DNA from: Acidimicrobiia bacterium
GTDB lineage: Bacteria > Actinomycetota > Acidimicrobiia > IMCC26256 > JAOSJL01
Assembly: GCA_041394025.1 (NCBI GenBank)
Contig: JAWKJA010000002.1
Location: 979,178-1,043,177 of the forward strand
Reading direction: 5' to 3'
DNA length: 64,000 bases
Below the pieces are notes generated by a model, which worked only from the letters and a program-made list of their open reading frames with translations, had not been told where the DNA came from and did not search any database. A program made the translations under genes and the position numbers. Of this stretch, positions 4,201 through 61,158 are shown piece after piece; positions within the stretch are counted from its first letter, which is position 1; the number at the start of each line of letters is the position of its first letter.

Positions 4201-4218
4201 CACCGGAGGCTGACGGTC

Positions 4219-5650: not shown

Positions 5651-5688
5651 GATCGCCACCCGAGCATTCGGGGCTCGGTGGTCGGGGC

Positions 5689-11373: not shown

Positions 11374-11904
11374 TCAGGCGTCGGCTGGGTCGTCGGTTGT
11401 CTCCGTGACCACCGAGAGATCCACGCCCTCCACGGCCGCGCCGAGGTCCTCCATCCAGTCGTCGGGATGGGCAGCGATGAACTGCGTCGTGAGCTCGATG
11501 ACCTCCGGCTCTCCCAGATCGATCACCTCGACGCCGGCCGCCTCGAGGAAGTCGTGGCTGGGCGTGCGGACGCCGTCCACCGATGCCAGGCCCGCCACGA
11601 CTCGGGGGATTCCCAGTTGTACGATGGCGCCTGCGCAGAGGAAGCACGGGATGGCGTTGGTGACGAGCGTCGTCTGCGCCAACTCGGCCAGCGGGACCGT
11701 TCCCGCCGCGCGTAGGCACGTGATCTCGGCGTGGGCGGTGACGTCACCGTCCTGGTAGTGGCGGTTCCGGCCCGTCGACAGCACAACACCGTCGGCGGTC
11801 CGCACGAGCGCAGCGCCGAACGGCGCGCCGTTCTCCGCCAGGCTCGCCCGCGCTTCACGGCTCGCCTCCGCCCACCCGGGTGTGTCTGCAGTTGAACTCT
11901 CCAC
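11374..11904 (-). CDS. CDA-fold nucleoside/nucleobase deaminase, divergent Fcy1-like paralog
   Basis: 176 aa. HAE...PCFLCAGAI zinc motifs, an AHPDDWMEDLG tail and an acidic C-terminal extension. GTG start. Confidence 0.75.
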   Translation of the reverse strand: MESSTADTPGWAEASREARASLAENGAPFGAALVRTADGVVLSTGRNRHYQDGDVTAHAEITCLRAAGTVPLAELAQTTLVTNAIPCFLCAGAIVQLGIPRVVAGLASVDGVRTPSHDFLEAAGVEVIDLGEPEVIELTTQFIAAHPDDWMEDLGAAVEGVDLSVVTETTDDPADA

Positions 11905-11956
11905 AACCGCTCACTTCGTTGGATGATTGAGGTGGGATCAGCCTACGCTCCGCGGC

Positions 11957-37729: not shown

Positions 37730-37758
37730 CGGTTCGCCCCTCTGCGTGGAGACTGCTG

Positions 37759-39984: not shown

Positions 39985-41103
39985 ATGGCTACGACGGCGG
40001 AGCCCGCATCCGACGACACACCGACGCGGCCGTCCGGGCCATCGCGCACCCCGGCCGCCGCTCGCGCGCTCGAAGGCAAGAAGGCCCGGCCGGTCCTGTT
40101 CTGGGCGGCACTCGGCACCTTCTTCGTCTGCCTCCAGTTCTACATCTACACACGGTGGATCGCGTCGAGCGACTTCACCCGTACCGACACGGGTCCCGAC
40201 CCGCTGCCGACGGCCACACAGGTGTGGGTGGTCGGCTTCCAGGTTCTCTCGGTCGTCCTCGCGCTGGTGTTCGTCGTGTGGGTCGTGCGGCAGAGCCTGC
40301 GGGAACGCCGTCTCAGCTTCGACGCCATGCTCGTGATCGCATGGATGTCGCTCTACTGGCAGGACCCGCTGCTCAACTACTTCCGTCAGCAGTTCTTCTA
40401 CAACTCCGGCATGATCAACTTCGGCTCGTGGACCGAGCAGATCCCTGGATGGATCAGCCCACAGGCGTCCCAGCTCCCCGAGCCGGTGCTGTTCGTCGGG
40501 GTCATCTACCTCTGGTTGGGTCCGCTCTCGGCGTTGATGGCATTCGGGATCATGAGGGCCGTCAAGCGTCGCAGACCCGAGACGTCGGTTTTCGCGCTCC
40601 TGGTCTCGGCCTGGGCCGTCCTGTTCTTCTGGGACATCCTGTGCGAGGTCATCTTCATCCGGACCGAGCTCTACGCCTACAACGGAGCCATTCACGGCCT
40701 GTCGATCTTCGGCGGGGAGAGGTACCAGTTCCCCGTGTACGAGGCGTTCTTCTGGCCGATGGTCTGGACGGCCATGGGAGCGATCCGCTTCTTCCGGGAC
40801 GATCGGGGCCGGACCTTCCTCGACCGCGGCCTCGATCGTGTGAGGGCGAGTAGGAGGAACACGACCGGCCTGCGGCTCCTCGCCATCATCGGATTCGCCA
40901 ACCTGGCGATGATCATCTACACGGTGCCGATCTGGTACTCGGGGATGCACGCCGGCCGTACGCCCGAGGGCTATCCGAGCTACCTCACGAACGAGATGTG
41001 CGGCGAGGGCACCGACTACGCCTGCACCGCGCCGGAGATCCCGATCCCGCTCCCCGGGTCGGGCAACGTGGACCCCGACGGTGGGCTCGTTCCGCCGTCG
41101 TGA
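39985..41103 (+). CDS. Polytopic membrane protein, probable AveC (spirocyclase) family
   Basis: 372 aa with several hydrophobic segments. The blocks FWAALGTFFVCLQFYIYTRW, LSFDAMLVIAWMSLYWQDPLLNYF and GERYQFPVYEAFFWP...IRFFRDDRG resemble my recollection of Streptomyces AveC. No alignment was run. Confidence 0.6.
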   Translation: MATTAEPASDDTPTRPSGPSRTPAAARALEGKKARPVLFWAALGTFFVCLQFYIYTRWIASSDFTRTDTGPDPLPTATQVWVVGFQVLSVVLALVFVVWVVRQSLRERRLSFDAMLVIAWMSLYWQDPLLNYFRQQFFYNSGMINFGSWTEQIPGWISPQASQLPEPVLFVGVIYLWLGPLSALMAFGIMRAVKRRRPETSVFALLVSAWAVLFFWDILCEVIFIRTELYAYNGAIHGLSIFGGERYQFPVYEAFFWPMVWTAMGAIRFFRDDRGRTFLDRGLDRVRASRRNTTGLRLLAIIGFANLAMIIYTVPIWYSGMHAGRTPEGYPSYLTNEMCGEGTDYACTAPEIPIPLPGSGNVDPDGGLVPPS

Positions 41104-46906: not shown

Positions 46907-48214
46907 TCATCCCATCCGCGCGAGCGCGTCGCGCGCTGCGGTCTGTCCGGTCTCGAAGGCGTATTCCGTCGCCGGGCCGGCCAGGTAGTCGCCGGCGAAG
47001 CTGATACCGGACAGCGGCTTCAGGTGGACGAACTCGCCGAGATCCCTGCAGTAGCCGGTGGGGAACGCGGGAATGCCCTCCCGAAATCCCACCTGCTTCC
47101 ACTCGGTCGTCGTCGATTCGATGTTCGGCCAGTAGCGTTCCAGAGCGTCGATCTTGGCGCGGTACTTGGCGTCGCCGCTCCAGTCGAGCATCTGACGGGC
47201 GAACTGGTACTTGCAGAGGATCGTGAACATCCAGTCGTCGGGGTTCGTCGGGTACTCGTGCCAACCGGCGCGGGCGATGTCGCGGTCTTCCTTGCGCGGG
47301 AAGTACACCATTCCCTCGAGGCCCGCGGGGGGCTCGGGCATCTTCAGCGTGAGCCAGTCGGCAGGCACGTAGGTGACCCTCCGGAAGAACCGACGCCGCG
47401 GCTCGTCGAGACCGTTCACGAAGTCGAGGACCCGGGTACCGGGCACGGCCACGATCACATGGTCGGCGTCGATGGTCTTCGACTCCCCACCCTGCTCGTA
47501 GTTCACGGTCATCGGTGGATCGCCGACATCCAGTCGCGTCGCCGATGCGCCCGTCCGGACGTCCAGGGTTGCTGCCAGAGCACGCGTGACCTGGCCCATC
47601 CCCTCTTCGAAAGTGAGCAGCTCGACCTGCTTGTGACTCGTGAAGAGGTGGAGAAAGAATCCCTTCCCGAGCTGTGACGGATCCCAGCTGGCCTGTCCGG
47701 CGAGCATCGGCTCCGCGGCGAACTCGAGGAACTCGGGAGCGATACGCCCCAACCACGTGTCGATCGACTCCGTGTCGGCCCACGCTGCCAGCCAGGGCTC
47801 ACGCTTGTGGTCGGGGTTGATGCGGGTCTGCTTGAGGAGCGCGGGGATGATCGCCGCCATGCGGGCCCGGCCCATCCAGGAGATGGCGCCGAACTTCAGG
47901 TAGGAGGTGGGGTCCATCGAGTCGACCTCGTAGATCTCGCCCCCCTTGTAGACGCGCGTGGTCATGTGCTCGTTGCCGTGATGGGGGATCTCCTTCACGC
48001 CGAGCTCCCGCGCGGCCGCACGCATCTCCACGGAGTCGCCCGTCGTCTCACCGGCACCCCGGTCGATCCAGGTGTCACCCCACTTGAAGGAGCGCATCCG
48101 GCCGCCCGCTTCCTCCTCTTTCTCCAGAACCACGACGTCGATGCCCTGATTCCGGAGCGCCCACGCCGCCCCCAGACCGGCGATCCCGCCCCCGATGACC
48201 ACCACCCGTGCCAT
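46907..48214 (-). CDS. FAD-dependent oxidoreductase, paralog 3
   Basis: ATG at 48214 preceded by GAGGGG. VVVIGGGIAGLGAAWAL...VLEKEEEAGGRM and FAGDY motifs. It shares WADTESIDTWL with paralogs 1 and 2. 435 aa. Confidence 0.8.
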   Translation of the reverse strand: MARVVVIGGGIAGLGAAWALRNQGIDVVVLEKEEEAGGRMRSFKWGDTWIDRGAGETTGDSVEMRAAARELGVKEIPHHGNEHMTTRVYKGGEIYEVDSMDPTSYLKFGAISWMGRARMAAIIPALLKQTRINPDHKREPWLAAWADTESIDTWLGRIAPEFLEFAAEPMLAGQASWDPSQLGKGFFLHLFTSHKQVELLTFEEGMGQVTRALAATLDVRTGASATRLDVGDPPMTVNYEQGGESKTIDADHVIVAVPGTRVLDFVNGLDEPRRRFFRRVTYVPADWLTLKMPEPPAGLEGMVYFPRKEDRDIARAGWHEYPTNPDDWMFTILCKYQFARQMLDWSGDAKYRAKIDALERYWPNIESTTTEWKQVGFREGIPAFPTGYCRDLGEFVHLKPLSGISFAGDYLAGPATEYAFETGQTAARDALARMG

Positions 48215-48319
48215 GGGGCCCCTCAAACCTCTAGCGAATACGACTGATTGTACGCTATCGTCTCACGGCGGTCGCGTGCAGGTGACACGCGGCGAATCGA
48301 GACCCGGGGAGATGACCCG

Positions 48320-49571: not shown

Positions 49572-50501
49572 GTGACGTCGGCGCCCAGCCTGCGGGACGC
49601 GGGAAAGGTCTACGTCGAGGTCGGTCTCAACGAGGTTGCGTCGAAGGATCGCAACGCCAACATCCCGTACGGCCCCGACGAAGTGGCGGCGGACGCGATC
49701 GCGTGCGCGCAGGCCGGCGCATCCGTGATCCACTTCCACGCCCGCCACGGCGACGGTACGCAGGCGTGGACCGACGACGGTGTCTACCGGCGGGCGATGG
49801 AGCTCATCGCCGAGGAGGCGGACCTCGTCACCTACCCCACCTATCCGCCCCGCGTCGACCGGGAGGAGCGGTACCGCCACCTGTGGGCGCTGGCCGACGA
49901 GCCCTCGACGGCCCCGCTGGAGCTGGCGCCGATCGACATCGGCTCGCGCAACGTGTCGTTGTGGGAGCCAGACAAGCAGCGGTTCGCGCCCCTCGGGATC
50001 CTGCCGGCCGAGAGCCAGGTGGCGCTCAACCCTCCCGACGAGATCGAGTGGGTCATCGCCCGGGCCGCCGAGCGTGGACTGCATCCCACGCTGGGCGTCT
50101 TCGACATGACGTATCTTCGGTACTCGATCCACGCGCTCTGGGCGGGCCTGCTGAAACCTCCTCTGCTCCTCAAGTGGTTCCTGTCGGAACGGTGGGTCGG
50201 CGGCACGTTCCCCACCCCCGCGGGACTCGACGCCTACCTTTCCCAGGTTCCCGACGGCGTGGATCACGAGGGGCTCGTGGTGCCCTACGCGATGTCGAAA
50301 GCCGACGACGTCGAAACCCTGTGGAGGCACGGCCTCGAGCGCGGTCAGAACATCCGCGTCGGTATCGGCGACAACCCGGAGGCCTTTGCCACATCCACGA
50401 ACACCGAGCTCGTGGAACGCGCCGTGGAGCTCATCGCCGGTTACGGCCTGAGACCGGCGACGGCCGACGACGTCAGGAACCGCCTCGGCCTCCGGGTTTG
50501 A
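49572..50501 (+). CDS. Beta-keto acid cleavage enzyme (BKACE/DUF849, 3-keto-5-aminohexanoate cleavage enzyme family)
   Basis: 309 aa. GLNEVASK...PYGPDEVAADAIACAQAGASVIHFHAR is the BKACE N-terminal signature. GTG start 7 nt after the SBP stop. Confidence 0.8.
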   Translation: MTSAPSLRDAGKVYVEVGLNEVASKDRNANIPYGPDEVAADAIACAQAGASVIHFHARHGDGTQAWTDDGVYRRAMELIAEEADLVTYPTYPPRVDREERYRHLWALADEPSTAPLELAPIDIGSRNVSLWEPDKQRFAPLGILPAESQVALNPPDEIEWVIARAAERGLHPTLGVFDMTYLRYSIHALWAGLLKPPLLLKWFLSERWVGGTFPTPAGLDAYLSQVPDGVDHEGLVVPYAMSKADDVETLWRHGLERGQNIRVGIGDNPEAFATSTNTELVERAVELIAGYGLRPATADDVRNRLGLRV

Positions 50502-50505: not shown

Positions 50506-51294
50506 TCAGTGAACGTCGGTCACGTAGGCGTCGACCATCTCGAGGAGTCCGGTCTCCAGACCGGGATCGTCGGTCAGGGGCCCGGTGACGGCGGCGGTAG
50601 CCGCCTCGCGTGGCGGTACACCGGCCGCGATCAGCCGACCCGCCGCGATGAGCACCCGGGTGGAAGCCACCTCCCGTAGACCGCTGCTCTCGAGCTTCCG
50701 GATGGCCTGCGCCAGTGCCACGAGCTCGGCCGGCCGGGTGCCGTCGAGGCCCGTCTCGTGCGCGACGACCTTCTCCTCCACCTCGGGCGGCGGGAAGCCC
50801 AGCTCGATGGAGATCATGCGCTGGCGTGTCGAGTCCTTGAGATCCTTCAGGACGCTCTGGTAGCCGGGGTTGTAGCTGACCACGAGCCCGAAGCCGTCGG
50901 CCGCACGCAGCGTCTCCCCCCGTCGCTCGAGCGGCAGCTCCCGACGGTGGTCTGCGAGGGGATGCAGCACGACGGTGGTGTCCTGGCGGGCCTCGACGAT
51001 CTCGTCGAGGTAGCAGATCGACCCCGACCGGACGGCGGTCGTGAGTGGGCCGTCGACCCACTCGGTGTCCCCACCCTTGAGCAGGAAACGACCGACCAGG
51101 TCGGCGGCCGTGAGATCCTCGTGGCAGGCGACCGTGATCAACGGGCGACCCACATCATGCGCCATCGCTTCGATGAACCGCGTCTTGCCGCATCCGGTGG
51201 GACCCTTGAGCAGGATGGTCAAACCCTGTTCGTGGGCGGCCACGAAGATGCGCTCCTCGTTTCCCACGGGCTCGTAGTAGGGGCGTCCGGGCAC
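50506..51294 (-). CDS. CbbQ/NirQ/NorQ-type MoxR-class AAA+ ATPase
   Basis: GTG at 51294, 1 nt after the upstream stop. LLKGPTGCGKTRFIEAMA (Walker A), ICYLDEIVEA (Walker B), VVSYNPGYQ and LKDSTRQRM. 262 aa. Confidence 0.85.
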   Translation of the reverse strand: MPGRPYYEPVGNEERIFVAAHEQGLTILLKGPTGCGKTRFIEAMAHDVGRPLITVACHEDLTAADLVGRFLLKGGDTEWVDGPLTTAVRSGSICYLDEIVEARQDTTVVLHPLADHRRELPLERRGETLRAADGFGLVVSYNPGYQSVLKDLKDSTRQRMISIELGFPPPEVEEKVVAHETGLDGTRPAELVALAQAIRKLESSGLREVASTRVLIAAGRLIAAGVPPREAATAAVTGPLTDDPGLETGLLEMVDAYVTDVH

Positions 51295-51295: not shown

Positions 51296-54013
51296 TCAGG
51301 CGCCTTTCTCGACGACACGGATCGTGCCGGTGTCGCCGTCGACCTCCACAGTCTGGCCGTCGTGCAACACGCGCGTGGCGTTCTCGGTGCCGACAACGCA
51401 CGGCACGCCGAACTCCCGGGCCACGACGGCCGGATGCGACAGAACGCCCCCCACGTCAGTCACGACGGCCCCCGCGAAGGCGAAGAGCGGGGTCCAGCCG
51501 GTGTCGGTGATGTGGGCGACGAGGACGTCGCCCGGGTCGAGATCGTCACTGACGTCGGTGAGAATGCGGACCCGACCTCGCACCGTTCCCGGTGACGCCG
51601 GTATTCCGCTCACGGCGGAGCCCTCAGCCGTGTCGGGATCGTCGGATTCGTCGACCCCGGCCGCGTCGGTGTCCCAGATGCCGGTGAAGTGATTGGGCAT
51701 CCTCAGCGCGGCGAGCCGCTTCCGCTCCTCGCGTCGGCGGGCGATGGTGTCGGCGCCGACCGCCGTGGACGCGAGCAGCTCCCGGTACGACAGGTAGAAG
51801 ACGTCCGATGGGTCGACGAGGGCGCCGAGAGCCACCAGCCTCCGGGCGCGCTCCCGAACAGCACGTCGCAATCCATGGGTGAGTCGGACGATCGGGTCAC
51901 GGGCCTGCTCGCGCTGACGCATGGCGTTGTTCATCATCCGTGCGGCGATCCGTTCCCGTAGTGCGCGCCGAGTCGCGGGCGGCGTGGAGGCAGGGGTCGG
52001 CGCTTTGACAGCCTTGATGACCGAATCGAGGAGGAGAACCGGCCGATCCGAGAACATTTCGTTCTCGAGCTCGGTCTCGCCGGGTCCACGGTGTCCGTAG
52101 CGTTCGACCAGGTCCTCGAACCACGTAGCGAACTCGCTGAGGCCGTCGACGGGTTCGCCGTCGTCTCCTGCACCACCCGTCGGGCGGTCTCCGGGTCGGA
52201 TGGCTGCCAGCACCTCCTCCGGTGAGCGTGTCGTGAGGAACGAGCCGAGCTGCCGACACCGGGCTGCCAGGTCTGCGAGTCGCCTCACACCGACCAGGGC
52301 ACCGGCACTCTGGAGGTCGTCGACCCCGCCGCGCTCGAGGTCGAACGCCTCGACACCCGAGATCTTCTCCGCCGCCGACTGTGCGCCGGCGGCGATCATG
52401 TTGGAGATGCACGCCACGTTCCAGGCCTGGCACAGCTCGTCGTGCAGGAGCTCGATGTGGGCGAGGAGCTCGGCATCCTCTTTGGCGCCCAACTCGTCGG
52501 GCGATGCGGGAAGCGTCGCGGCCTCGCGTTCGGAACGTCCGATCTCCCCTCGGAACCCCAGCAGCTTCGGGCCCGTGTGCGCCAACAGACGCAACGAGTC
52601 GAGTGCCTCCGACAGAGACATCGACGACGCCTCCCGGTTCGCGTGGTGGATACCCAGGAACTGCTCGTCGATGTCCTCGGGCGACATACCCGGCATCGCG
52701 GCGGCCATCTCGCGAACGACCGAGACGTTGGCGTAGATCCTGTGACCGAAGCTTCCGGCGCCCCGACCGCGCTGGGCATGCGCGATCTCGTCTCTCAGGT
52801 CGAGGAAGTCGACCATGCCGTCGCTCGCGGCGAGCATGGCGTCGAGAGAAACCGACAGCGACAGCGGTGTCATCGGGCCCGGAAACGCCTCGGAAAGGTT
52901 GGTGGCCGAGTAGGTGGGATACGTCGGGTCGATCGGGCTGTCGAACTCACCTCTGAGCTCTGCGGGTGCCGCGTCGGCCAGCCCGGCGTCGGTCGACGCA
53001 TCCGATCCATCCGGACCGTCATACGGAGGAAGATCGCGTGGAGGGTTCGTATCGACGTACGCAAGGCGCCAGGGGAGGTCGATGCGGTGAGGACCGATGT
53101 AGACGGTACGCGAGAGCACCCGGGCCAGGTCTTCGAGAGCCTCGCGCCCGGTCCACGCGCACTGGAAATCCCACTCCTCCCGCAGCCGCTTGTCGTCGAG
53201 CACGGGCATCCACCGGTACCCGGCGAGTGACGGAGGGTCCATCTCGATCAGGTTGTACTTCCAACCGATTTCGACCACCCGCTGCATCGCGGACAGCGGA
53301 ATCTCAACGACCTTCTTGCCCAGAATCCCTGCTATCTCGGGAATGGTCATCCCGCCGTCGGGCGGCGCCACGTTCACGACCCCGGTGCGGTCGCTCAAGA
53401 TCGCCTCGGCGTGGAACCGGCCGATGTCCTCGTCGTGCATGAACTGCCAGACCGGCGTTTCTCCTTTCGCCGACATCAGAACGGGAGTGGCGAACATGCG
53501 GAACTCGTAGTTGTCGAGATGTCGACCTGCGGCCGGTGAGCTGCGGGTCACGACGGACGGGACACCTGCGTCGGCGATGAGTCCCTCCACCTCGGCCTTG
53601 TGCGCCGCGTAGTAGATGTCAGGTGCCGGGCGAAGCGGATCCGACTCGGTGAACACGGGCGGGTTGTCGGGATGGGATCCGTAGACCGTGGCCGACGACG
53701 AGAACACGATGCGGGGGCAGCCTGTTGCCTCCATGGCCCGCAGCACGTTGGTGCTCCCACCGATGTTGACGTCGCGGGTCTCCTCCTCGGTGCGAAGCGG
53801 CGTGACAGCCCATGCCAGGTGCACGACCACATCGGCGCCGACCATTGCCTTCTCGACGGCCTCGGTGTCACGGATGTCGGCGCTGACGAACTCCACTCCG
53901 GGGACGGTGACATCGCGTCGCGCCATGGCCACGACGTCCACGCCTTCCCGGACGAGACGCGTGCAGATGTCACGGCCGAAGACGCCGCTGGCACCCGTGA
54001 CGAGGACCCTCAT
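51296..54013 (-). CDS. Tri-partite fusion protein: extended-SDR (NAD-dependent epimerase/dehydratase-like), rifampin-phosphotransferase-like helical region and PEP-utilizer swivel phosphohistidine domain
   Basis: 905 aa. The N-terminus has MRVLVTGASGVFG and YYAAHK (YxxxK). The middle has TNLSEAFPGPMTPLS. The last 103 aa carry GIPASPG...VTDVGGVLSHPAVVAREFGVPCVVG, with the His codon at 51434-51436. Confidence 0.8.
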   Translation of the reverse strand: MRVLVTGASGVFGRDICTRLVREGVDVVAMARRDVTVPGVEFVSADIRDTEAVEKAMVGADVVVHLAWAVTPLRTEEETRDVNIGGSTNVLRAMEATGCPRIVFSSSATVYGSHPDNPPVFTESDPLRPAPDIYYAAHKAEVEGLIADAGVPSVVTRSSPAAGRHLDNYEFRMFATPVLMSAKGETPVWQFMHDEDIGRFHAEAILSDRTGVVNVAPPDGGMTIPEIAGILGKKVVEIPLSAMQRVVEIGWKYNLIEMDPPSLAGYRWMPVLDDKRLREEWDFQCAWTGREALEDLARVLSRTVYIGPHRIDLPWRLAYVDTNPPRDLPPYDGPDGSDASTDAGLADAAPAELRGEFDSPIDPTYPTYSATNLSEAFPGPMTPLSLSVSLDAMLAASDGMVDFLDLRDEIAHAQRGRGAGSFGHRIYANVSVVREMAAAMPGMSPEDIDEQFLGIHHANREASSMSLSEALDSLRLLAHTGPKLLGFRGEIGRSEREAATLPASPDELGAKEDAELLAHIELLHDELCQAWNVACISNMIAAGAQSAAEKISGVEAFDLERGGVDDLQSAGALVGVRRLADLAARCRQLGSFLTTRSPEEVLAAIRPGDRPTGGAGDDGEPVDGLSEFATWFEDLVERYGHRGPGETELENEMFSDRPVLLLDSVIKAVKAPTPASTPPATRRALRERIAARMMNNAMRQREQARDPIVRLTHGLRRAVRERARRLVALGALVDPSDVFYLSYRELLASTAVGADTIARRREERKRLAALRMPNHFTGIWDTDAAGVDESDDPDTAEGSAVSGIPASPGTVRGRVRILTDVSDDLDPGDVLVAHITDTGWTPLFAFAGAVVTDVGGVLSHPAVVAREFGVPCVVGTENATRVLHDGQTVEVDGDTGTIRVVEKGA

Positions 54014-54040: not shown

Positions 54041-55177
54041 CTACTTCTCTCCTGCCGTGTCGGCCAGTGCCTCGAGGCGTTCGACCGTGTCGGCGAACCC
54101 CTCGATGAGTTCCAGCATCACTCGCCGGGCGGGCTTCACGGAATTCATACTGCCCACGACCTGACCCACGAAGTAGTTGGCGAGCTTCTCGGCGCCCGAA
54201 CCCGGTGTCGTCGAGGCACGGGCGATGCGAGCGCGTGCATCGTCGACCAGCATCGGCTGGAGCGGCATCGGTAGAGGGCCGGGCGACTCATCAGACTCCC
54301 ACTCGTCGGTCCACGCGGTGCGCAGCTGCCGGGCCGGCTTGCCGGTGATGGACCGCGAACGCACGGTGTCACCACTCCCGGCTGCGAGGAACTTGTCCTT
54401 GACGACCGGGTGGGTCTCGGCCTCCTCGGTGGTCAGCCAGACCGAGCCGGTCCACACTCCCTCGGCACCCAGTGCCAGGGCCGCAGCAACCTGCCGGCCG
54501 TCGCCGATGCCACCGGCCGCGAGCACCGGGACGGGGGCCACCTCGTCGACGACCTCGGGAACGAGGACCATCGTCGAGATCGTTCCCGTGTGCCCACCGG
54601 CCTCGTATCCCTGGGCGACGATGATGTCGGCACCGACCTGGGCGTTGCGCGCGGCATGCGCCCGGGTCCCGGCAAGTGCGGCGACCGGGATGTCGCGTGC
54701 GTGCGCCTCCTCGATCATCATCGGTGGCGGTGGGCCGAGGGCGTTGGCGATCAGACGGATCGGGTGTGCGAAGGCGATGTCGGCCAGTTGTCCCACCCGC
54801 TCGTGGGCGACAGTCATCTTCGCGAAGCTCTGCTCGACGACACCCTCGGGTATCTCCGGCACCTCGTAGCGCTCGAGGAGATCGCCGAGAAACGCCCGGT
54901 GCTCATCGGGAATCAGCTCCGCGAGGGCCGTCGGGTCGAGGTCGGATTCGTCGCCCACGTAGCTGGCGGGGAAGAGCAGGTCGACGCCGAACGGTCGGCC
55001 CCCGACCTCACCCTCGATCCAGTCGAGCTCCACCTCCAGCTCCTCGGGAGTGAGAGCGGTGGCACCGAGAACGCCCATGCCACCGGCGTTGGTGACCGCC
55101 GCCACCACGTCACGGCAGTGGCTGAACGCCAGGATCGGGAACTCGATACCCAGCATGTCGCGGACTGTCGTGTTCAC
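54041..55177 (-). CDS. Nitronate monooxygenase/FMN-dependent NAD(P)H oxidoreductase (NMO family)
   Basis: 378 aa. LGIEFPILAFSHCRDVVAAVTNAGGMGVLG, and GYEAGGHTG and AAGGIGDGRQ motifs. GTG preceded by GGGAGG. Confidence 0.85.
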   Translation of the reverse strand: MNTTVRDMLGIEFPILAFSHCRDVVAAVTNAGGMGVLGATALTPEELEVELDWIEGEVGGRPFGVDLLFPASYVGDESDLDPTALAELIPDEHRAFLGDLLERYEVPEIPEGVVEQSFAKMTVAHERVGQLADIAFAHPIRLIANALGPPPPMMIEEAHARDIPVAALAGTRAHAARNAQVGADIIVAQGYEAGGHTGTISTMVLVPEVVDEVAPVPVLAAGGIGDGRQVAAALALGAEGVWTGSVWLTTEEAETHPVVKDKFLAAGSGDTVRSRSITGKPARQLRTAWTDEWESDESPGPLPMPLQPMLVDDARARIARASTTPGSGAEKLANYFVGQVVGSMNSVKPARRVMLELIEGFADTVERLEALADTAGEK

Positions 55178-55256: not shown

Positions 55257-56792
55257 ATGACCGACCCCCGCAGCCTCACCCTCGGCGACGTCCTGCGCGA
55301 GCACCGTCGGAGCCGCCCAGGGAAGACAGCCACCGTCGACGGGGATGTGCGGCACACATGGCCCGAGCTCGACGACCGCGTCAACCGGCTCGCCAACGCC
55401 CTGAACGCCGACGGCTTCGCTGCGGGAGACCGGATCCTGTGGCTGGCGCAGAACTCGTCGCGTCTTCTCGAAGCGCTCCTCGCTACCGCGAAGCTCGGCG
55501 GGATCTGCTGTCCGGTCAACTGGCGCCAGTCCCCCGAGGAGCTGACCTTCGTGATCGACGACGTAGAGGCTCACACGGTCCTGTGGCAGGAGGCAGAGAT
55601 CGGCGACTCCGTGCGTGTGGGTCGTGAGCGCGCGTCGTCATCGTCACGCTGGGTACAGCTGGACTCTGCCACCGATCCGAACTCAGACGAGTACGAGGCT
55701 CTCCTGGGCGACGCGTCTCCGACTGACCCGGACCTCGACGTCGACCCAGCCACCCCCGTTCTCGACGTCTACACAGCGGCGTTCGAGGGACGGCCCAACG
55801 GCGCCCTGCTCGACCACACGGCCATCGTGACCCAGAGTGTGCTCATGGCGATGCTCCAGGGCGTCGACCACGAGTACCGGTATCTCAACTGCGGGCCGAT
55901 GTTCCACGTCGGTACGCTCATGCTCACCCTCGCCACCTTCCAGATGGGTGGTGTGAACGTCTTCACCCCGCGTGTCGACGCGGAGGAGCTCTGCCGTCTC
56001 ATCGACTCCGAGCGGTGCACCGGGGCCTTCCTGCGCCCGCCGACGATCGCCCAGATCGTGGAGGTCAACGCCGATCGACGCTACGACCTCTCGTCGCTGC
56101 GGGCCAATCCCGGTCCGGACGCCTGGAACGAGATGGTCACCCTCGACACATCACCGCGCGCCCGCCACCGTGGTGGCTACGGCCAGACCGAGGTCATGGG
56201 GCTCATCACGTTCGGGGCGCTCGGTCCCGGGACCGGCAACGCCGGACGTCCCTCACCCTTCGCTCAGGTCAGGATCGTGGATCCCGAGGGAAACGAGGTC
56301 GCCACCGGGGAGACCGGTGAGATCGTCGTGCGCGGCCTCACCGTCATGGTCGGTTACGACCGCCGGCCCGAGCTCAACGACCGCCGGCAGCGCGGTGGGT
56401 GGCACCACACGAACGACCTCGGTGTCCGCGAGGCCGACGGGACGATCCGCTTCGTCGGACCCATGACCCGGATCGTCAAGTCGGCGGCGGAGAACATCTA
56501 CCCCGCCGAGGTCGAGGCGGCCCTGAAGCGCCACGACGCCGTGGCCGACGCAGCGATCATCGGTGTGCCCGATGAGAAGTGGGAGCAGAGTGTGAAGGCC
56601 ATCATCGTTCTGGAGGATGGCAGGTCGGTCACCGCCGAGGACCTCATCGAACACTGTCGCTCGACGATCGCGTCGTACAAGAAGCCGCGCACGGTGGAGT
56701 TCGTCGACGCACTGCCGAAGCGGGGGAACGAGACCGACTACGACGCCCTCGACGCGCAGTTCGGCGGCGGCGGCTACCCCGGTGGGGACTGA
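55257..56792 (+). CDS. ANL-superfamily acyl-CoA synthetase/AMP-dependent ligase
   Basis: ATG at 55257. GYGQTE, GEIVVRG, WHHTNDLG, ENIYPAEVE and SYKKPRTVEFVDALPK motifs. The P-loop position reads YTAAFEGRPNGA instead of the TSGTTGxPKG type. 511 aa. Confidence 0.85.
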   Translation: MTDPRSLTLGDVLREHRRSRPGKTATVDGDVRHTWPELDDRVNRLANALNADGFAAGDRILWLAQNSSRLLEALLATAKLGGICCPVNWRQSPEELTFVIDDVEAHTVLWQEAEIGDSVRVGRERASSSSRWVQLDSATDPNSDEYEALLGDASPTDPDLDVDPATPVLDVYTAAFEGRPNGALLDHTAIVTQSVLMAMLQGVDHEYRYLNCGPMFHVGTLMLTLATFQMGGVNVFTPRVDAEELCRLIDSERCTGAFLRPPTIAQIVEVNADRRYDLSSLRANPGPDAWNEMVTLDTSPRARHRGGYGQTEVMGLITFGALGPGTGNAGRPSPFAQVRIVDPEGNEVATGETGEIVVRGLTVMVGYDRRPELNDRRQRGGWHHTNDLGVREADGTIRFVGPMTRIVKSAAENIYPAEVEAALKRHDAVADAAIIGVPDEKWEQSVKAIIVLEDGRSVTAEDLIEHCRSTIASYKKPRTVEFVDALPKRGNETDYDALDAQFGGGGYPGGD

Positions 56793-59416
56793 CCGTCGTC
56801 CACCACCCGCACGATCCCCGCATCGCCGTCGACCTCGACGATCTGGCCGTCGGTGAGCCGTCGCGTCGCGTCGGCGGCACCGACGACGCAGGGAATCCCG
56901 TACTCACGGGCGACGATCGCCGGGTGCGACATCAGCCCGCCCACATCCGTGACGACGGCAGATGCCATCGCGAAGAACGGAGTCCAACCGGTGTCCGTCA
57001 CGTGGGTGACGAGGACGTCTCCGGGCTCGAGTTGATCGCCGGAGTCGACGATCCGCGCCGGTCCCTGGGCCCGCCCCGGCGCGGCTGCGATCCCGCGCAC
57101 CTCACCGCACTCGGTTGACTCGTCGGGCTCGGGTGTCGCCGACCCTCCGAGCGCCGCCTCGGACCATGAGCGGGTGAACATCGACGGCATCGAATAGTCA
57201 CGCAACCGTTCCCGCTCGGCGCGGCGACGTACGACACGGTCAGCTGCATCGGAGGGCGGGGTGAACGCCTCGTCGACCGCCAGGTACCAGATGTCGTCGG
57301 GCTCGGGGAGCGTCCCACCGGCTGCCAGGCGACGCCCCTGCTCACGCAGGGCCTTGCGCAACTCGTGTGTGAGGCGCACTGTGGTGTCCCGAATGTCCTC
57401 ACGCATCGACAGGAGCGAGGTTGCCAGACGTTCAACCGCTCCCCGACGACCGGGCGACAGGGTCCCGCTCGATGGAGTGTCCGCCGTCTTCACGATCACG
57501 TCGAGAAGTCGGTCGGGGGTGTCGTCGAAGACATCGTTGGCCAGTTCGAGCTCACCCGGTCCACGGTGACCCACTTGCCGCCGCAACTCGGCGAACTCCC
57601 GGGCGAACCCGGGATCCCGGTCGTCGAGACGCTTCACGCGCTCCTCTGGTGGGGTGTCGTCCAACCAGCCTTTCAACGCGGGCGCTGCGCGGAGATGGTC
57701 GGCCAGCACTTCCACGCCTGCGATCGCGTTGGCACTGGCCAGACCGTCGTCGCCGACATGCAGCGCACCCACGGCCTCGGGGCCGCGGAGTCGCTCGACA
57801 GCGGACACGGCGGCACCGGCGACAGGGTTGGCGATGATGACGGCGGCCCAGCACTGGGCGAGCTCGTCGCGCAGCACGCCGACACGCGCCTCCAGTCCGG
57901 CATCGCTGAGCTCTTCGAGCACATCTGTGCCCACGACCAACGTGTCGACCCGCCCCGCCAACCGCCGTCCCTCACCGCGGAGCCCGATCACGGGCGGTGC
58001 CGTGCGCCCGACGATACGAAGCGCCGTGAGCACCTCGCGGGGAGTCATCGCGGGCCGCTCGAAGTCCTCCGGCACGGGAATTCCGAGGTACTGGCTGTCC
58101 ATGTCCTCGGGCGTGATCCCCGGGAGCCCCTCGGTCGTCTCACGGGCGAGCGACACGTTGAGGTATATGTGGTGCCCGAACACGGACACCATGCGGACCG
58201 TCGCCTCGTGACGAACCTCGCCCGACATTCCCAGGAAGTCGACGAGATAGGTCTGACCCGCCCGTAGCGCGCTGATCGACACGGTCACCGACATCGGTGT
58301 GAGCGGCCCGGGAAACGCCTCCGACAGATTCGTGGCGGTGAAGACGTCGAAGTCGGGGTGAACCGCGTCGTCGAACTCCCCCGCCACCCCCTCGGGAGCC
58401 GCGGGAAGGAGGTCACCGCCGTCGAGACGCGGCCAGTTGCCCGGTGGTGGCTCCACCCACGGCAGACGCCGCCGCCGTGGAACTCGGTAACGACCCACGT
58501 AGGTGCTGCGCGTGAGGGAACGTGCGGCGTCACGGGCGGTCTCGGCGCTGGTCCACGCGCACCGGAAGCCCCATTCTTCGCGCAGACGCGTGGTGTCGAC
58601 GACGGGCATGTACCGGAGCCCGTCGTAGGCAGCCGGATCCATCTCGGTGACACCCAACGCCGCCATCACCCCGACCATCCCGGTGGCGACACATTCGGGG
58701 AGCCGCGGCGTCGGCCGCTCGACAAGTTCGCCGAGCTCCTCGGGGCTCAGGACGTCATCGGCGGCCAGGTTGACCGTGCCGGTCCGGGGGGAGATGGCAG
58801 CCTCGGCGAGAAAGCGGCCGACGTCCTCCTGGTGGACGAGCTGCCAACGGTTCGTGTCACCCCGCACCGCAGGGAACACGGGTCCTGCAAACTGCTGTGT
58901 GACCGCGTTGTCGATTCCGCGCCCCAGTGTCGCCGCCACCCTCGCCACGACGGCGTCGACGTCTGCGGCAGCGATGAGATCCTCTACCTCCATCTTGTGG
59001 TGCGCGTACTCGAAGGCGGGATCAGGTCGCGGTTGGTCGTCTTCCCGGAAGGGCGCGGGATGGTGACGCGCACTCCCGTAGACGGTGACCGAAGAGGCGA
59101 ACACCAGACGCCGGCAACCGGTGCTCTCCATGGCGGCCAGGACGTTCGCGCTCCCACCGACATTGATGTCACGGGTGTCGGCGGTCTCGCCGGCGGCACT
59201 CATCATCCAGGCCAGGTGCACAACGGCGTCGCATCCCAGGAGCGCTGACGCCACACTGGCGGCGTCGGCAACGTCCCCGGCGATGAAGCCGACTCCCGGC
59301 GGGAGGGACACCGGCTCGTGGCGTGCCAGAGCGACCGGATCGGCACCCAGCCGGGTGAGCCGACGGGCAACGGCGCGACCGAACGCCCCCGTTCCACCCG
59401 TTACCAGGACCCGCAT
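56774..59416 (-). CDS. Second SDR / RPH-like / PEP-utilizer swivel fusion protein, paralog of 51296..54013
   Basis: ATG at 59416. MRVLVTGGTGAFG, EYAHHK, TNLSEAFPGPLTPMS and VTDVGGLMSHPAIVAREYGIPCVVG (His codon 56924-56926). 880 aa. Its start lies 16 nt inside the upstream VWA gene. Confidence 0.8.
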   Translation of the reverse strand: MRVLVTGGTGAFGRAVARRLTRLGADPVALARHEPVSLPPGVGFIAGDVADAASVASALLGCDAVVHLAWMMSAAGETADTRDINVGGSANVLAAMESTGCRRLVFASSVTVYGSARHHPAPFREDDQPRPDPAFEYAHHKMEVEDLIAAADVDAVVARVAATLGRGIDNAVTQQFAGPVFPAVRGDTNRWQLVHQEDVGRFLAEAAISPRTGTVNLAADDVLSPEELGELVERPTPRLPECVATGMVGVMAALGVTEMDPAAYDGLRYMPVVDTTRLREEWGFRCAWTSAETARDAARSLTRSTYVGRYRVPRRRRLPWVEPPPGNWPRLDGGDLLPAAPEGVAGEFDDAVHPDFDVFTATNLSEAFPGPLTPMSVTVSISALRAGQTYLVDFLGMSGEVRHEATVRMVSVFGHHIYLNVSLARETTEGLPGITPEDMDSQYLGIPVPEDFERPAMTPREVLTALRIVGRTAPPVIGLRGEGRRLAGRVDTLVVGTDVLEELSDAGLEARVGVLRDELAQCWAAVIIANPVAGAAVSAVERLRGPEAVGALHVGDDGLASANAIAGVEVLADHLRAAPALKGWLDDTPPEERVKRLDDRDPGFAREFAELRRQVGHRGPGELELANDVFDDTPDRLLDVIVKTADTPSSGTLSPGRRGAVERLATSLLSMREDIRDTTVRLTHELRKALREQGRRLAAGGTLPEPDDIWYLAVDEAFTPPSDAADRVVRRRAERERLRDYSMPSMFTRSWSEAALGGSATPEPDESTECGEVRGIAAAPGRAQGPARIVDSGDQLEPGDVLVTHVTDTGWTPFFAMASAVVTDVGGLMSHPAIVAREYGIPCVVGAADATRRLTDGQIVEVDGDAGIVRVVDDGQSPPG

Positions 59417-61158
59417 CTCTTCTCCCGTCGTTGGTCGGCCGACCGTATCGCCTGCCGGAAGAGACGGCCGAGGTCGCCGCGTATCATGTCGACATCGGGC
59501 GCACGGGCGTGCGCCGACGTGCCGAAGACGCGTTGCAGCGCGGCGGCATCGGTCCGACCTCCGATCGACAGGCACAGGCAGCCGATTCCGTTGCGTCGCG
59601 CCTCGGCGAGCGCGCGACGGGCATCCGCCTCCCCGTAGGTTCCCTCGTACCCGTCGTCGTAGGCGAAGCCGTCCGAGAGGACGACGAGGAGGCGTTGCTC
59701 CGTCCCACCGTGTGTCTCGAGGAGGTGGGATCCATGGCGCACGGCGGCACCGAGACGCGTGTACGAACCCGGCTCGAGAACAGCGAGACGGCGGAGCGTC
59801 TCGGCACCGTAGTGGTCGTCGAAGGTCTTGACCCGCACCATGTGGACGGCGGAACGACCCCGGGACCGGAAGCCGTAGGCCGCCACGCGGTCTCCCAGAC
59901 TCGCCAGTGCGTCGAGCAACCTGGCCGCGGCGGCACGCTGGTGGTCGTGGACCGAGCGGCCGGCGGGGCTGCGCTCCGCTCCCGACCCCGAGATGTCGAG
60001 GAGTACCAGGACCGACAGGTCGCGCCGGGTCCGCAGGTTCTCGAGGTACACGTCCTCGTCGATCTCCTGGGGCACGTCGACGTCACGGGCCGCAGCGTGA
60101 CCGACGGCCAACTCCACCTGCCGGTCGACGACCGCGTCGAGATCCAGATCGTCGCCCTGCGGTCGACGCCGGTTTCGCTGCAAGCCGACGCCCAGGCGCG
60201 CCAGGCGCCTGCGCAGCACATCGTCGGACGCCGATCCGAGGTCGCGGGGAGGCCGGTCGTGCGGCGGCTCCACCTCCACGACGGTGCACCAGCCTGGCCT
60301 GTAGCGCCTCTTGTGAGCGTTCCACTCGGGGTACACGGCGTGCCCCGGGACGAGCGGCTGCTCGGCCACCGTGGGATCGACGGGGACGAGCGACACCACG
60401 GCGTGCTTGCCCCGCCGCGCGACCGCGCGGCCCCTGCCCGTGGGCAGTTCGGCACCCGCCGGGCCGGAGCCCTCCTCGCGTCCGAGCCCCAGCACCTTGT
60501 GGAGAAGCCTCGCCACCGGCCCCCGGCCACCGACCGGCGCGCTGAACTTCTCGGCCACCCTTCCCGGGTCCTGAGTCTCCTCGCTCTCGTCGAGATCGGG
60601 CAGGTCGTCGTCGCGTGGACTCCTCCGGAGATCTTGGCGGGTCGGGACCCCACCGTCGTCGCCGCGGTCGCGACGCAGCACACGGCGCGGGCGAATGGTC
60701 CCCCACTCCGGTGGTGGGTCGGGCACCGTCGGGTCGCCCAGCGCGGTCTCGAGTGACTCCTCGGGGCTCCGTGTGACGGGGATGCCCTCGGGCGTCGGGA
60801 TTCGCACACCGGGAGGGAGTCCGCCCCCGGCCGCCAAGCGGCACGACTCGAGCGCCAGGTAGCGGCTCGTGACCCGGGGGTGCCCCGACAGGCGTTTCAG
60901 GATCGGGCGGTCCAGGGAGTGACCTCCCAGCAGTGCCGCCTGTGCCGCGACCTCCGCGCGGGTGCCCGGCCACCCGGCGGCAGGGTCGGGCGACACGAAG
61001 ATCGTCGCTCCGTCGGTGAAGGGTGCCTCCCCCTCCCGATGGGGCGCGACCTCGACCGGGCGGCCGGCGAGCGCCGACGCCAGGAGCCGGTAGCGCTCGC
61101 TCTCGACCCCGGGCCGCGCTCGCTCGGGGATATCGTCGGTGTCGTCGGATACGGGCAC
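59401..61158 (-). CDS. NorD/CbbO-type von Willebrand factor A (VWA) domain protein
   Basis: 585 aa. YPEWNAHKRRYRPGWCTVVE (the NorD/CbbO YxEWD...WC block) and a C-terminal VWA domain with MIDAS LLDISGSG. GTG start. Confidence 0.8.
   Translation of the reverse strand: MPVSDDTDDIPERARPGVESERYRLLASALAGRPVEVAPHREGEAPFTDGATIFVSPDPAAGWPGTRAEVAAQAALLGGHSLDRPILKRLSGHPRVTSRYLALESCRLAAGGGLPPGVRIPTPEGIPVTRSPEESLETALGDPTVPDPPPEWGTIRPRRVLRRDRGDDGGVPTRQDLRRSPRDDDLPDLDESEETQDPGRVAEKFSAPVGGRGPVARLLHKVLGLGREEGSGPAGAELPTGRGRAVARRGKHAVVSLVPVDPTVAEQPLVPGHAVYPEWNAHKRRYRPGWCTVVEVEPPHDRPPRDLGSASDDVLRRRLARLGVGLQRNRRRPQGDDLDLDAVVDRQVELAVGHAAARDVDVPQEIDEDVYLENLRTRRDLSVLVLLDISGSGAERSPAGRSVHDHQRAAAARLLDALASLGDRVAAYGFRSRGRSAVHMVRVKTFDDHYGAETLRRLAVLEPGSYTRLGAAVRHGSHLLETHGGTEQRLLVVLSDGFAYDDGYEGTYGEADARRALAEARRNGIGCLCLSIGGRTDAAALQRVFGTSAHARAPDVDMIRGDLGRLFRQAIRSADQRREKRCGSW

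Follow-up and report, generated by a model that had tools for sequence, protein, structure and literature searches.

An SDR-fused swivel phosphohistidine protein from an Acidimicrobiia genome as a possible acceptor half of a split RPH-type dikinase

The gene at 51296..54013 (-) of the window (the whole 64-kb stretch of DNA analysed here) encodes a 905-aa protein with an ATG start, hereafter paralogue 1, in which an SDR domain, a substrate-binding domain of the rifampin phosphotransferase (RPH) type and a swivel phosphohistidine domain follow one another (open reading frame and translation). Paralogue 1 may be the acceptor half of a split RPH-type small-molecule dikinase, fused at its N-terminus to an intact, probably NADP(H)-dependent SDR; we give this catalytic assignment about an even chance of being right. 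The architecture itself is already known: the family with SDR, helical and swivel domains is widespread in Actinomycetota, where more than 100 full-length relatives exist, and includes M. tuberculosis Rv2047c. Viewed as part of a split RPH-type dikinase, a ‘hypothetical epimerase’ becomes a testable enzyme, in a large actinobacterial family one of whose members, in M. tuberculosis, is required for survival when mycobactin is supplied from outside. For the window itself, the more modest result is two further members of the family.

An earlier note on this DNA had described three parts, an SDR, a helix-rich middle and a swivel His domain, and Pfam, an AlphaFold2 (AF2) model, Foldseek and domain HMMs, which give the order SDR-RD-SWIVEL, agree that they are real. 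The extended SDR domain (residues 1-312; 53078..54013, -) is matched by Pfam Epimerase, 3Beta_HSD and RmlD_sub_bind and, in Foldseek, by GalE-type SDRs. The two motifs reported for these N-terminal ~300 aa, GASGVFG and YYAAHK, were located at 6-13 (as TGASGVFG) and 134-139, and residue checks place G7xxG10xxG13, R32/R33, D46, S106/S107 and Y135xxxK139 in the domain; an invariant Arg follows beta-strand 2. Fold, Gly motif and Ser/Tyr/Lys are those of extended SDRs (GalE-type, cinnamoyl-CoA reductase, OleD), whereas those enzymes are not fused to kinase modules. Partial NCBIfam matches of this domain, to OleD (the 2-alkyl-3-oxoalkanoate reductases, E 2e-19), AvaA7, HpnA and GalE, all lie far below the cut-offs and place it in no particular SDR subfamily. 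An interdomain segment (residues 313-361; 52931..53077, -) without regular secondary structure in the AF2 model leads to the all-helical substrate-binding domain (residues 362-775; 51689..52930, -), homologous to the RPH rifampin-binding domain and to HpeH, aligned by Foldseek to 5hv1/5fbu/5fbt and corresponding to PF27448 Rph_4th in precomputed Pfam lists. Its motifs are N372/E375 (in TNLSEAFPGP, from 371), GH641R642GPGETE and R701/E702/R705. The swivel phosphohistidine (PEP-utilizers mobile) domain closes the chain (residues 796-902; 51308..51628, -; PF00391, E 2.5e-24) and keeps the catalytic His that had been claimed for it: His860 lies within GGVLSHPAVVARE, which starts at 855, its codon (in TDVGGVLSH) occupies 51434..51436 (-) by coordinate check, and it aligns with the catalytic His of RPH.

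As the earlier note predicted, Pfam places Epimerase at the N-terminus (residues 3-174, E 1.5e-25) and PEP-utilizers at the C-terminus (826-896, E 2.5e-24) of paralogue 1 and gives no PPDK_N match; even at E<=1, neither PPDK_N nor PEP-utilizers_C is matched. Among the domains of PEP synthase and PPDK, only the mobile His domain is matched, and the PEP-utilizers_C TIM-barrel is missing. The AF2 model is confident (pLDDT 91.1, pTM 0.94), with pLDDT below 50 only at residues 335-340, a poorly ordered stretch between the SDR and helical domains, and consists of an alpha/beta domain at the N-terminus, a stretch made almost entirely of helices (about 370-770) and, at the C-terminus, a small domain rich in beta structure. 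When searched against the PDB with Foldseek, as had been proposed, the model found Listeria rifampin phosphotransferase first (5hv1, 5fbu; E ~1e-20, best 6e-21, ~600 columns, 20% identity), followed by GalE-type extended SDRs spread over NDP-sugar enzymes (target-normalised TM <=0.78). The Pfam and Foldseek matches to the parts of paralogue 1 are far beyond chance. From the AF2 model and the Foldseek alignment, the middle region (the ~450 aa called helix-rich and RPH-like before) has the fold of the RPH rifampin-binding domain, not that of an ATP-grasp. An ATP-grasp hidden there was considered and is ruled out by Pfam (E<=1), the helical AF2 structure and the Foldseek alignment to the rifampin-binding domain; with the domain HMMs, these results bear out the claim that no phosphoryl donor module is present in cis. 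RPH (PDB 5FBS/5FBT/5FBU, 5HV1) is thus the best structural match, and a profile match covers its residues 522-866 (native numbering), while phmmer against the PDB matches the swivel side of paralogue 1 to RPH 649-866. The two proteins nevertheless differ: the ATP-grasp of RPH (residues 1-314) is missing from paralogue 1 and an SDR stands in its place, the RPH model NF041857 scores 149.7 bits against a cut-off of 999 and only over the C-terminal 209 residues, and the antibiotic-resistance setting of RPH is not that of paralogue 1.

The residues of phosphotransfer are highly conserved. In a profile alignment, R701, E702 and R705 of paralogue 1 pair with R666, E667 and K670 of RPH, in which Arg666Ala and Glu667Ala abolish the second phosphotransfer (PMC4844700). 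N372, E375, H641, R642, E702 and H860 are invariant (155/155 relatives); position 701 is Arg in 152/155 and position 705 in 133/155, the remainder being Lys. The same phosphotransfer motifs are present in full-length RPH-like and HpeH-like proteins, and among the SDR-less helical+swivel relatives from a genome scan the N-x-[SGA]-E and swivel-His motifs are shared by all, GHR and RE by most. Homology and residue invariance suggest that, once His860 is charged, the swivel domain would dock on the helical domain, R701/E702 (the equivalents of RPH R666/E667) would position the phosphohistidine, and the phosphate would pass to a hydroxyl of the bound substrate.

The SDR has a different history. Both window paralogues have an intact SDR, as do 56/57 members of their clade, and paralogue 1 retains YxxxK, whereas the catalytic Tyr is kept in 0/17 alignable pks12-linked orthologues; this is a new point, and for the pks12-linked clade it makes the ‘reductive release’ proposed in 2008 less convincing. 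The SDR of the Nocardia clade is degenerate, its NAD-binding motif and catalytic segment decayed or deleted. Since the SDR has decayed in these two clades, yet all phosphotransfer residues persist, redox chemistry is not obligatory for the family. The fusion in paralogue 1 suggests that, in a further step, the SDR, working on the same substrate, would make or consume the phosphorylated hydroxyl or a carbonyl next to it, for example by converting a ketone or aldehyde to the alcohol that then becomes a phosphate ester. A quite different role had been raised before, in which the SDR replaces the ATP-grasp and the phosphoryl group for His860 comes from redox-coupled or NDP-sugar-like chemistry in the Rossmann domain. 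The SDR does sit at the N-terminal place of the RPH ATP-grasp, the Arg, Asp and His of its substrate lobe are listed as invariant in a 45-sequence alignment, and the model is compact (pTM 0.94). However, the pks12-linked clade has lost Tyr/Lys and the SDR of the Nocardia clade is degenerate, while both clades keep the phosphotransfer residues, SDR-less helical+swivel relatives exist with separate ATP-grasp genes, and we know of no precedent for SDR-mediated phosphohistidine formation. Loading of His860 by the SDR is accordingly very improbable.

A donor acting in trans, the other option that had been put forward, is the best reading because the C-terminal two thirds of paralogue 1 resemble HpeH/CreH/PpsA and because a VadK-like gene recurs in related loci. 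HpeHI, CreHI and PpsAB, of the same superfamily, set a direct experimental precedent: their ATP-grasp is a subunit of its own, and it charges the helical+swivel subunit (PMC12167813). By their description, HpeH, CreH and PpsA are like paralogue 1 in that a single chain lacking an ATP-grasp carries an RPH-type helical domain and, C-terminal to it, a swivel His (PMC12167813). They lack the N-terminal SDR of ~310 aa that paralogue 1 adds; their complexes have an ATP-grasp partner, whereas none adjoins paralogue 1; and their substrates are phenols, whereas the context of paralogue 1 points to aliphatic or lipid-like compounds. VadK of M. tuberculosis (Rv1127c), which combines an ATP-grasp with a swivel domain, phosphorylates itself on His (PMC13400623). 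The PEP-utilizers swivel domain is common to VadK and the SDR-fused family, and their deficits are complementary, VadK and other truncated PPDKs having ATP-grasp and swivel without an acceptor domain (neither SDR nor helical substrate domain) and the SDR-fused proteins having acceptor and swivel without an ATP-grasp. The first step would then be the charging of His860 by an ATP-grasp protein encoded elsewhere, most likely a PPDK_N+swivel (‘VadK-like’) or an HpeI-like protein. VadK-like proteins already carry a swivel His of their own, which is a point against a donor in trans.

Genomic context was searched for such a donor. HMMs built from six RPH-like N-termini and five VadK-like proteins matched only the two swivel domains in the window, and neither these HMMs nor Pfam scans of most plausible genes revealed an ATP-grasp or VadK-like gene within the 64 kb; likewise, none was found within 10 kb of the closest relatives (L003, L082-L084). 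PPDK_N+PEP-utilizers genes do recur near other SDR-fused members, at <=10 kb in five loci (L006, L008, L010, L086, L087), in each of which they adjoin an ANL gene, and a truncated match to the same profile occurs in L037. Contigs of matching length (75-171 kb) suggest three more cases in which one contig carries both a fused and a VadK-like protein. Genes of this type also adjoin SDR-less helical+swivel genes in four loci (L045, L048, L057, L073), and stand-alone ATP-grasp genes are present in L060 and L079; an extra PPDK_N+PEP-utilizers gene was seen in 0 of ~20 loci whose kinase has its ATP-grasp in cis. Separate SDR genes beside RPH-like kinases (L038, L060, L065, L066) were considered as a split form of the fusion and rejected, since their weak matches (30-44 bits) mark them as generic SDRs.

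The same survey bears on two other explanations. With no ATP-grasp in the window or the closest related clusters, paralogue 1 could be an ATP-independent transphosphorylase or phosphomutase, His860 shuttling phosphate between two substrates or two positions with no nucleotide-binding partner; HpeH alone moves phosphate from 4-phosphoacetophenone to acetovanillone (PMC12167813), and paralogues lying side by side could pass phosphate to each other. However, the ATP-dependent enzymes characterised so far perform such exchange as a partial reaction, other family members repeatedly have ATP-grasp+swivel genes close by, and the context suggests no phosphorylated donor substrate, which makes this explanation rather unlikely. 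A regulatory module would also account for the linkage of VadK-like genes to the family: a VadK-like His kinase would phosphorylate the swivel His to control the fused SDR or partner enzymes, with no small molecule phosphorylated, in keeping with the description of VadK as a regulatory autophosphorylating His kinase without a known phosphoacceptor (PMC13400623). We regard this as decidedly unlikely, as the RPH-type residues for phosphotransfer to a substrate are nearly invariant (E702 155/155, R701 152/155) and the SDR catalytic residues are dispensable in two clades, the opposite of what control of the SDR would predict.

Paralogue 1 does not stand alone. Paralogue 2 (56774..59416, -; 880 aa by gene call on an identical Logan contig) has the same SDR, helical and swivel order in Pfam and domain HMMs, is ~44% identical to paralogue 1 (tblastn) and has all the key residues (residue table), and the tandem arrangement may mean that the two act together. 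The window context is a catabolic-type gene island of an Acidimicrobiia MAG that carries both. Downstream of paralogue 1, a CbbQ/NorQ-type AAA+ ATPase (50506..51294, -; 262 aa; Pfam AAA_5 + CbbQ_C) starts one base past its stop codon, a position kept in L003 and L083. The gene of a VWA-domain protein (59401..61158, -; 585 aa; Pfam VWA_2 / VWA_CoxE), the presumed CbbQ partner, shares the 16 nt at its 3′ end with the start of paralogue 2. Each paralogue is thus tightly linked to one half of the CbbQ/VWA pair, which, like the second paralogue itself, is a new point. The VWA protein is homologous to the one adjoining CbbQ in mycobacterial loci; a related cluster (L084) also holds a VWA_2 protein, and among 18 pks12-type loci CbbQ is present in 8 and the VWA partner in at least 7. 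An ANL adenylate-forming enzyme (55257..56792, +; 511 aa as called on the identical contig; Pfam AMP-binding + AMP-binding_C) lies between the paralogues, as again in L002, L082 and L083/L084, and ANL genes occur in 9 clustered loci, also beside VadK-like genes. The CbbQ gene is convergent with a BKACE (beta-keto acid cleavage enzyme family) gene (49572..50501, +; Pfam BKACE) that is conserved in five loci (L003, L004, L005, L041, L083).

The neighbouring ANL enzyme or the CbbQ (Q-type) ATPase had been named as candidate donors in trans, and both gene types are indeed recurrently linked to the family. However, what ANL enzymes pass to a carboxylate is AMP, ATP hydrolysis by AAA+ ATPases involves no phosphoenzyme, and swivel His domains are known to be charged at ATP-grasp or PEP-binding domains. 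A donor role for either is mechanistically implausible, and we attach next to no weight to it; substrate activation accounts better for the ANL link, and assembly or remodelling for that of CbbQ/VWA. CbbQ/VWA pairs are known as remodelling or maturation factors, and the one here more probably serves remodelling or assembly than phosphoryl supply. Phosphatase genes directly adjoin family members elsewhere (HAD in L004-L006, Y_phosphatase3 in Nocardia loci). Invariant phosphotransfer residues and the recurrence nearby of ANL-VadK-like pairs, phosphatases and CbbQ/VWA narrow the hypotheses. ANL, ALDH, ACAD, P450, CoA-transferase and BKACE neighbours, together with the pks12 linkage of Rv2047c orthologues, point to an acyl or alcohol compound of lipid-like or terpenoid-like character as the probable substrate. 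An NMO-family FMN oxidoreductase gene (54041..55177, -; 378 aa; Pfam NMO) lies 27 nt upstream of paralogue 1 and is also found upstream in L082 and L083, there with a 423-426-aa gene in between. This intervening gene was rejected as a VWA partner, having no similarity to the window VWA protein and no Pfam match; by eye, it has a GTTGTPT motif, typical of PaaK-like adenylating enzymes.

The earlier note took the architecture to be uncharacterised, which holds insofar as no member has a characterised biochemical function; it is not unrecognised, however, since NF004520/PRK05865 (‘sugar epimerase family protein’) matches end to end and a JGI name exists (‘nucleoside-diphosphate-sugar epimerase/phosphohistidine swiveling domain-containing protein’). 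Residues 1-903 of paralogue 1 are colinear with model positions 1-839 of 854 (E 5.2e-145), and Rv2047c and NF004520 are likewise without an ATP-grasp. At 484.5 bits, against a curated cut-off of 1509, paralogue 1 is not an NF004520 equivalog, and it belongs to a different subfamily, cluster 5. For M. tuberculosis Rv2047c, an epimerase-type domain at the N-terminus and a PEP-utilising one at the C-terminus have been described; the protein has a genetic phenotype only (mycobactin toxicity) together with a proposed role in phosphomycoketide synthesis. In the same operon, pks12 encodes the synthase for the phosphomycoketide antigen that CD1c presents. Its pks12-linked orthologues, with ~33-36% identity to paralogue 1, adjoin a PKS, whereas paralogue 1 sits in a catabolic-type island as one of two CbbQ- or VWA-linked paralogues; Pfam scans of most plausible genes found no PKS in the window, and paralogue 1 is not directly downstream of pks12. 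A giant upstream ORF is present in 18 loci, and in L009 it is a bimodular reducing type I PKS.

A wider and more tentative possibility, which we hold to be doubtful, is that the family including Rv2047c provides the missing acceptor of VadK-like truncated PPDKs. Such a two-component system would have two swivel His residues, possibly with a His-to-His relay, and would phosphorylate lipid or terpenoid alcohols such as the Pks12 mycoketide; the paired paralogues of the window clade would also need the CbbQ/VWA remodeller. If this were true, VadK would gain a small-molecule output and the phosphorylation step of phosphomycoketide synthesis would be assigned. The VadK authors propose another role, regulation of the methylcitrate cycle; Rv2047c is absent from the main text and supplements of that paper, and Rv2048c and pks12 from its supplements (PMC13400623). 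A mention of ‘Rv2047c’ elsewhere (PMC6851703) is irrelevant, as it is apparently a mislabelled succinate-dehydrogenase locus tag. In TnSeq, ppdK, pks12 and rv2047c have a common requirement at high mycobactin (PMC7058343).

Paralogue 1 is read from an ATG start through 905 codons of the minus strand (51296-54013), and the three-part architecture that the earlier note had assigned to this ORF was borne out by the ORF coordinates, Pfam, AlphaFold2 and Foldseek. As that note had expected, Pfam placed Epimerase at the N-terminus (residues 3-174, E = 1.5e-25, overlapped as usual by other families of extended SDRs) and PEP-utilizers at the C-terminus (residues 826-896, E = 2.5e-24); PPDK_N and PEP-utilizers_C were not found in Pfam even at E ≤ 1, nor were further domains. 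The motifs it quoted are all present, in true numbering as G7xxG10xxG13, Y135xxxK139 (YYAAHK, 134-139), TNLSEAFPG at 371 and GGVLSH860. A confident AlphaFold2 model, with 45 homologues as input (pLDDT 91.1, pTM 0.94), shows an alpha/beta domain that extends to residue 312 or so, then a stretch with no regular secondary structure, where confidence is under 50 at 335-340 alone. From about 370 to 770 the model is essentially all helical, and the chain ends in a small domain rich in beta structure. In Foldseek, the best PDB matches of this model were Listeria rifampin phosphotransferase (RPH) structures 5hv1 and 5fbu (E about 1e-20, about 600 columns, 20% identity), followed by GalE-type SDRs (TM up to 0.78 on the target). 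Precomputed Pfam lists assign the middle region to PF27448 ("Rph_4th"), and family-profile positions 560-872 align with RPH residues 534-878 of 5hv2, whose numbering is the native RPH numbering plus 12. Taken together, Pfam, AlphaFold2, Foldseek, the RPH profile alignment and Rph_4th describe a middle region that is all-helical and RPH-like rather than an ATP-grasp. The domain that the earlier note had named as a possible refutation was thus absent from this region.

Paralogue 1 is colinear over residues 1-903 with NF004520 of NCBIfam (PRK05865, "sugar epimerase family protein", 854 positions; E = 5e-145), at 484 bits, far under the equivalog cut-off of 1509. The architecture, which the earlier note did not recognise as characterised, thus belongs to a recognised family, though one without known enzyme activity: it is known as a sequence family, not as an enzyme. 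The protein database holds at least 120 clusters, nearly all of 840-900 aa and with the same Pfam combination; hosts among the clusters listed include Mycobacterium, Mycolicibacterium, Sporichthya and many Actinomycetota MAGs. Such proteins carry the JGI name [quoted passage not shown], and an Acidimicrobiia MAG encodes a protein of 100% identity to paralogue 1 itself. Our genome scan found the fused architecture in about 40 loci, and a homologue directly downstream of a giant ORF in 18 loci, which we take to be those of Rv2047c orthologues; in one of them (L009) the giant ORF encodes a type I PKS that has two modules and is fully reducing. The combination of reductase-like and swivel domains in M. 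tuberculosis Rv2047c was described earlier, with the proposal that the protein releases the Pks12 product reductively and phosphorylates it (Chopra et al., 2008; PMC2443190). Mycobactin kills an rv2047c deletion mutant (Zhang et al.; PMC7058343), and 2020 TnSeq data showed a stronger requirement for ppdK (now VadK), pks12 and rv2047c alike when mycobactin was high (PMC7058343).

RPH is built of three domains: ATP-grasp (1-314), rifampin-binding (327-754) and swivel His (767-865). When phosphate is transferred to the drug, the phosphohistidine is positioned by Arg666 and Glu667 together with Lys670, and the Arg666Ala and Glu667Ala substitutions abolish this transfer (PMC4844700). In the profile alignment these three residues correspond to R701, E702 and R705 of paralogue 1. 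N372, E375, H641, R642, E702 and H860 are invariant in 155 family members, while position 701 is Arg in 152 (Lys in three) and position 705 is Arg in 133 (Lys in 22). The scan showed the N-x-[SGA]-E and swivel-His motifs to be common to full-length RPH-like proteins and SDR-less helical+swivel proteins, most of which also have the GHR and RE motifs. With these residues and motifs kept, the machinery for "reaction 2" (phosphate from His~P to a substrate hydroxyl) is conserved in full. Of the proteins characterised so far, HpeH, CreH and PpsA come closest; each is the acceptor subunit of a two-component dikinase. In HpeH the residue His581 is essential, and HpeI, the partner of HpeH, is a separate ATP-grasp protein (PMC12167813). 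Our best explanation, at about even odds, is that paralogue 1 is likewise the SDR-fused acceptor half of a split RPH-type dikinase, in which His860 would be charged by an ATP-grasp protein encoded elsewhere and would pass its phosphate to a hydroxyl of a lipid-like substrate. HpeH on its own passes phosphate between phenolic substrates (PMC12167813); that paralogue 1 is an ATP-independent phosphotransferase seems unlikely to us, and that its histidine makes it a regulatory phospho-receiver somewhat less likely still.

If paralogue 1 is such an acceptor half, its donor should be an ATP-grasp protein. Pfam scans of most of the plausible window genes found no ATP-grasp, and HMMs of six RPH-like N-termini and five VadK-like proteins matched only the two swivel domains in the window. 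Elsewhere, five loci have a PPDK_N+PEP-utilizers gene (525-562 aa) no more than 10 kb away from an SDR-fused member, in each case directly adjoining an ANL gene (pairs at L006 1020-4330, L008 2631-5947, L010 1147-4388, L086 1709-4956 and L087 17495-19663). The two genes overlap by 4 nt in L006, L008 and L087, and the pairs lie 4-8 kb from fused members that span several different subfamilies. Contig sizes that agree between the two protein searches suggest that the two gene types share a contig in three more cases (75, 153 and 171 kb), and L037 has a truncated match to the VadK-like profile at the locus edge. VadK-like genes are also neighbours of helical+swivel genes that lack the SDR, in L045, L048, L057 and L073 (in L048 the two are contiguous and on one strand), while L060 and L079 have stand-alone ATP-grasp genes. 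Where the kinase carries an ATP-grasp of its own, in about 20 loci, no such additional gene is present. In Gordonia oryzae (L048, 3461-7631, minus strand) the VadK-like gene, the helical+swivel gene and a gene for a 328-aa protein with only a weak swivel match are contiguous on one strand, which looks like a three-gene split dikinase. These PPDK_N+PEP-utilizers proteins are of the same type as M. tuberculosis VadK (Rv1127c), which combines ATP-grasp and swivel domains, lacks an acceptor domain and autophosphorylates on His422; neither the paper on VadK nor its supplements mention Rv2047c (PMC13400623). Since their domain deficits are complementary, VadK-like and fused-family proteins make attractive candidate partners. 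The earlier note's view that no donor is visible in cis thus stood, and a donor in trans is likely, given the VadK-like genes near other members; the trans candidates it named, the neighbouring ANL enzyme and the Q-type ATPase, are implausible, and we give the idea that the ANL or CbbQ protein supplies the phosphoryl group almost no weight.

The SDR domain had been offered as a replacement for the donor module. In both window paralogues the Gly motif, S106/S107 and Y135xxxK139 are kept, as they are in 56 of the 57 members of the window clade, and an invariant Arg (R32) follows beta-strand 2. Under the coenzyme rules for extended SDRs, an Arg at this place suggests NADP(H), and R32 accordingly suggests NADP(H) as the coenzyme here. 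The pks12-linked orthologues keep the Gly motif, R32 and D46, but the catalytic Tyr is present in none of the 17 aligned (L009, L011, L014-L018, L020-L024, L033-L035, L039 and L040), where E, D, H, V or a gap takes its place and the Lys is often lost. In the Nocardia clade (L027-L032, L036, L037) the SDR is degenerate, with GxxExxG in place of the usual Gly motif and a deletion of the Ser..YxxxK segment. Judged from these alignments, SDR chemistry is dispensable in both clades, with kinase residues unchanged, which argues against the SDR as phosphoryl supplier and leaves that explanation very improbable. The Tyr loss also weakens the published proposal of a "reductive release" role for Rv2047c-type proteins. 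In the window clade, the SDR is probably an active oxidoreductase on the same substrate as the kinase module.

In minus-strand order, beginning at the highest coordinates, the window cluster comprises a VWA gene (61158-59401, minus), which overlaps by 16 nt the start of paralogue 2 (56774-59416, minus; 880 aa, about 44% identical to paralogue 1, with the same architecture and all key residues), then the ANL gene (55257-56792, plus), NMO (55177-54041, minus), paralogue 1, a CbbQ/NorQ AAA+ gene (51294-50506, minus) whose start lies one base past the paralogue 1 stop codon, and a BKACE gene (plus) convergent with CbbQ. The same cluster recurs in L082 and L083/L084: a VWA_2 gene lies upstream of paralogue 2 at a distance of about 5 kb, and paralogue 2 is followed by P450 (absent in L082), ANL, CoA-transferase, NMO, a 426-aa gene and paralogue 1, then CbbQ, BKACE and an ABC transporter with its binding protein. 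These loci, the window and L002, where two paralogues flank the ANL gene, have paired paralogues on one contig; several pairs of database matches with contigs of equal size may be further cases. Outside the window, CbbQ/VWA association was seen in L003, L083/L084, L009, L011, L015, L022-L024, L039 and L050. Because it extends to pks12-type mycobacterial loci (of 18 such loci, 8 have CbbQ and at least 7 have a VWA partner within 10 kb), the AAA+/VWA link to the family arose at least twice; we favour a role in remodelling or assembly. Two contigs of long-read MAGs (L003 9944-13403, L050 9962-12597) have the homologous gene broken into several reading frames, and in L003 the CbbQ gene downstream of it is broken too; assembly frameshifts, not pseudogenes, are the probable explanation.

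Genes for P450s, acyl-CoA dehydrogenases, enoyl-CoA hydratases and classical SDRs are among the neighbours of family members, and in L006 and L086 an ALDH gene is directly downstream. Phosphatases (HAD or Y_phosphatase3) directly adjoin family members in two clades; in L027-L030 and L036 a Y_phosphatase3 gene comes directly after the family gene and shares its strand, and in L031, L037 and L040 one lies close by. In L087, a linalool dehydratase-isomerase-family gene (4066-6045) about 1 kb upstream of the family member, with a TetR gene between, hints at terpenoid alcohol substrates. The window is itself an island of catabolic type; among its genes are five P450s, three Amidohydro_2 genes, three flavin amine oxidases and ACADs. 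The flavin amine oxidases (PF01593) lie at 36398-38026 and 37759-39144, which are overlapping ORF calls, and at 46907-48226. Together, family neighbours and island point to a lipid-like or terpenoid-like substrate and to interconversions of carboxylate, aldehyde, alcohol and phosphate ester. A PF01593 homologue is also found in L083. Six pks12-linked loci (L014, at 12633-13643, L016, L018, L020, L021 and L033) have an EcKL/APH-type phosphotransferase gene downstream of the Rv2047c-type gene, another candidate kinase of that pathway. Nucleoside/base genes are scattered through the window (3196-4200, 11374-15389, 35215-36363) and encode two IU nucleoside hydrolases, a cytidine-deaminase-fold protein, an adenosine-deaminase-family protein and two tandem AdoHcyase-like NAD-binding proteins. 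An AveC-like (spirocyclase family) gene (39985-41103, plus) adjoins periplasmic binding protein and ABC transporter genes, and is conserved in the related cluster L083 (19300-20370).
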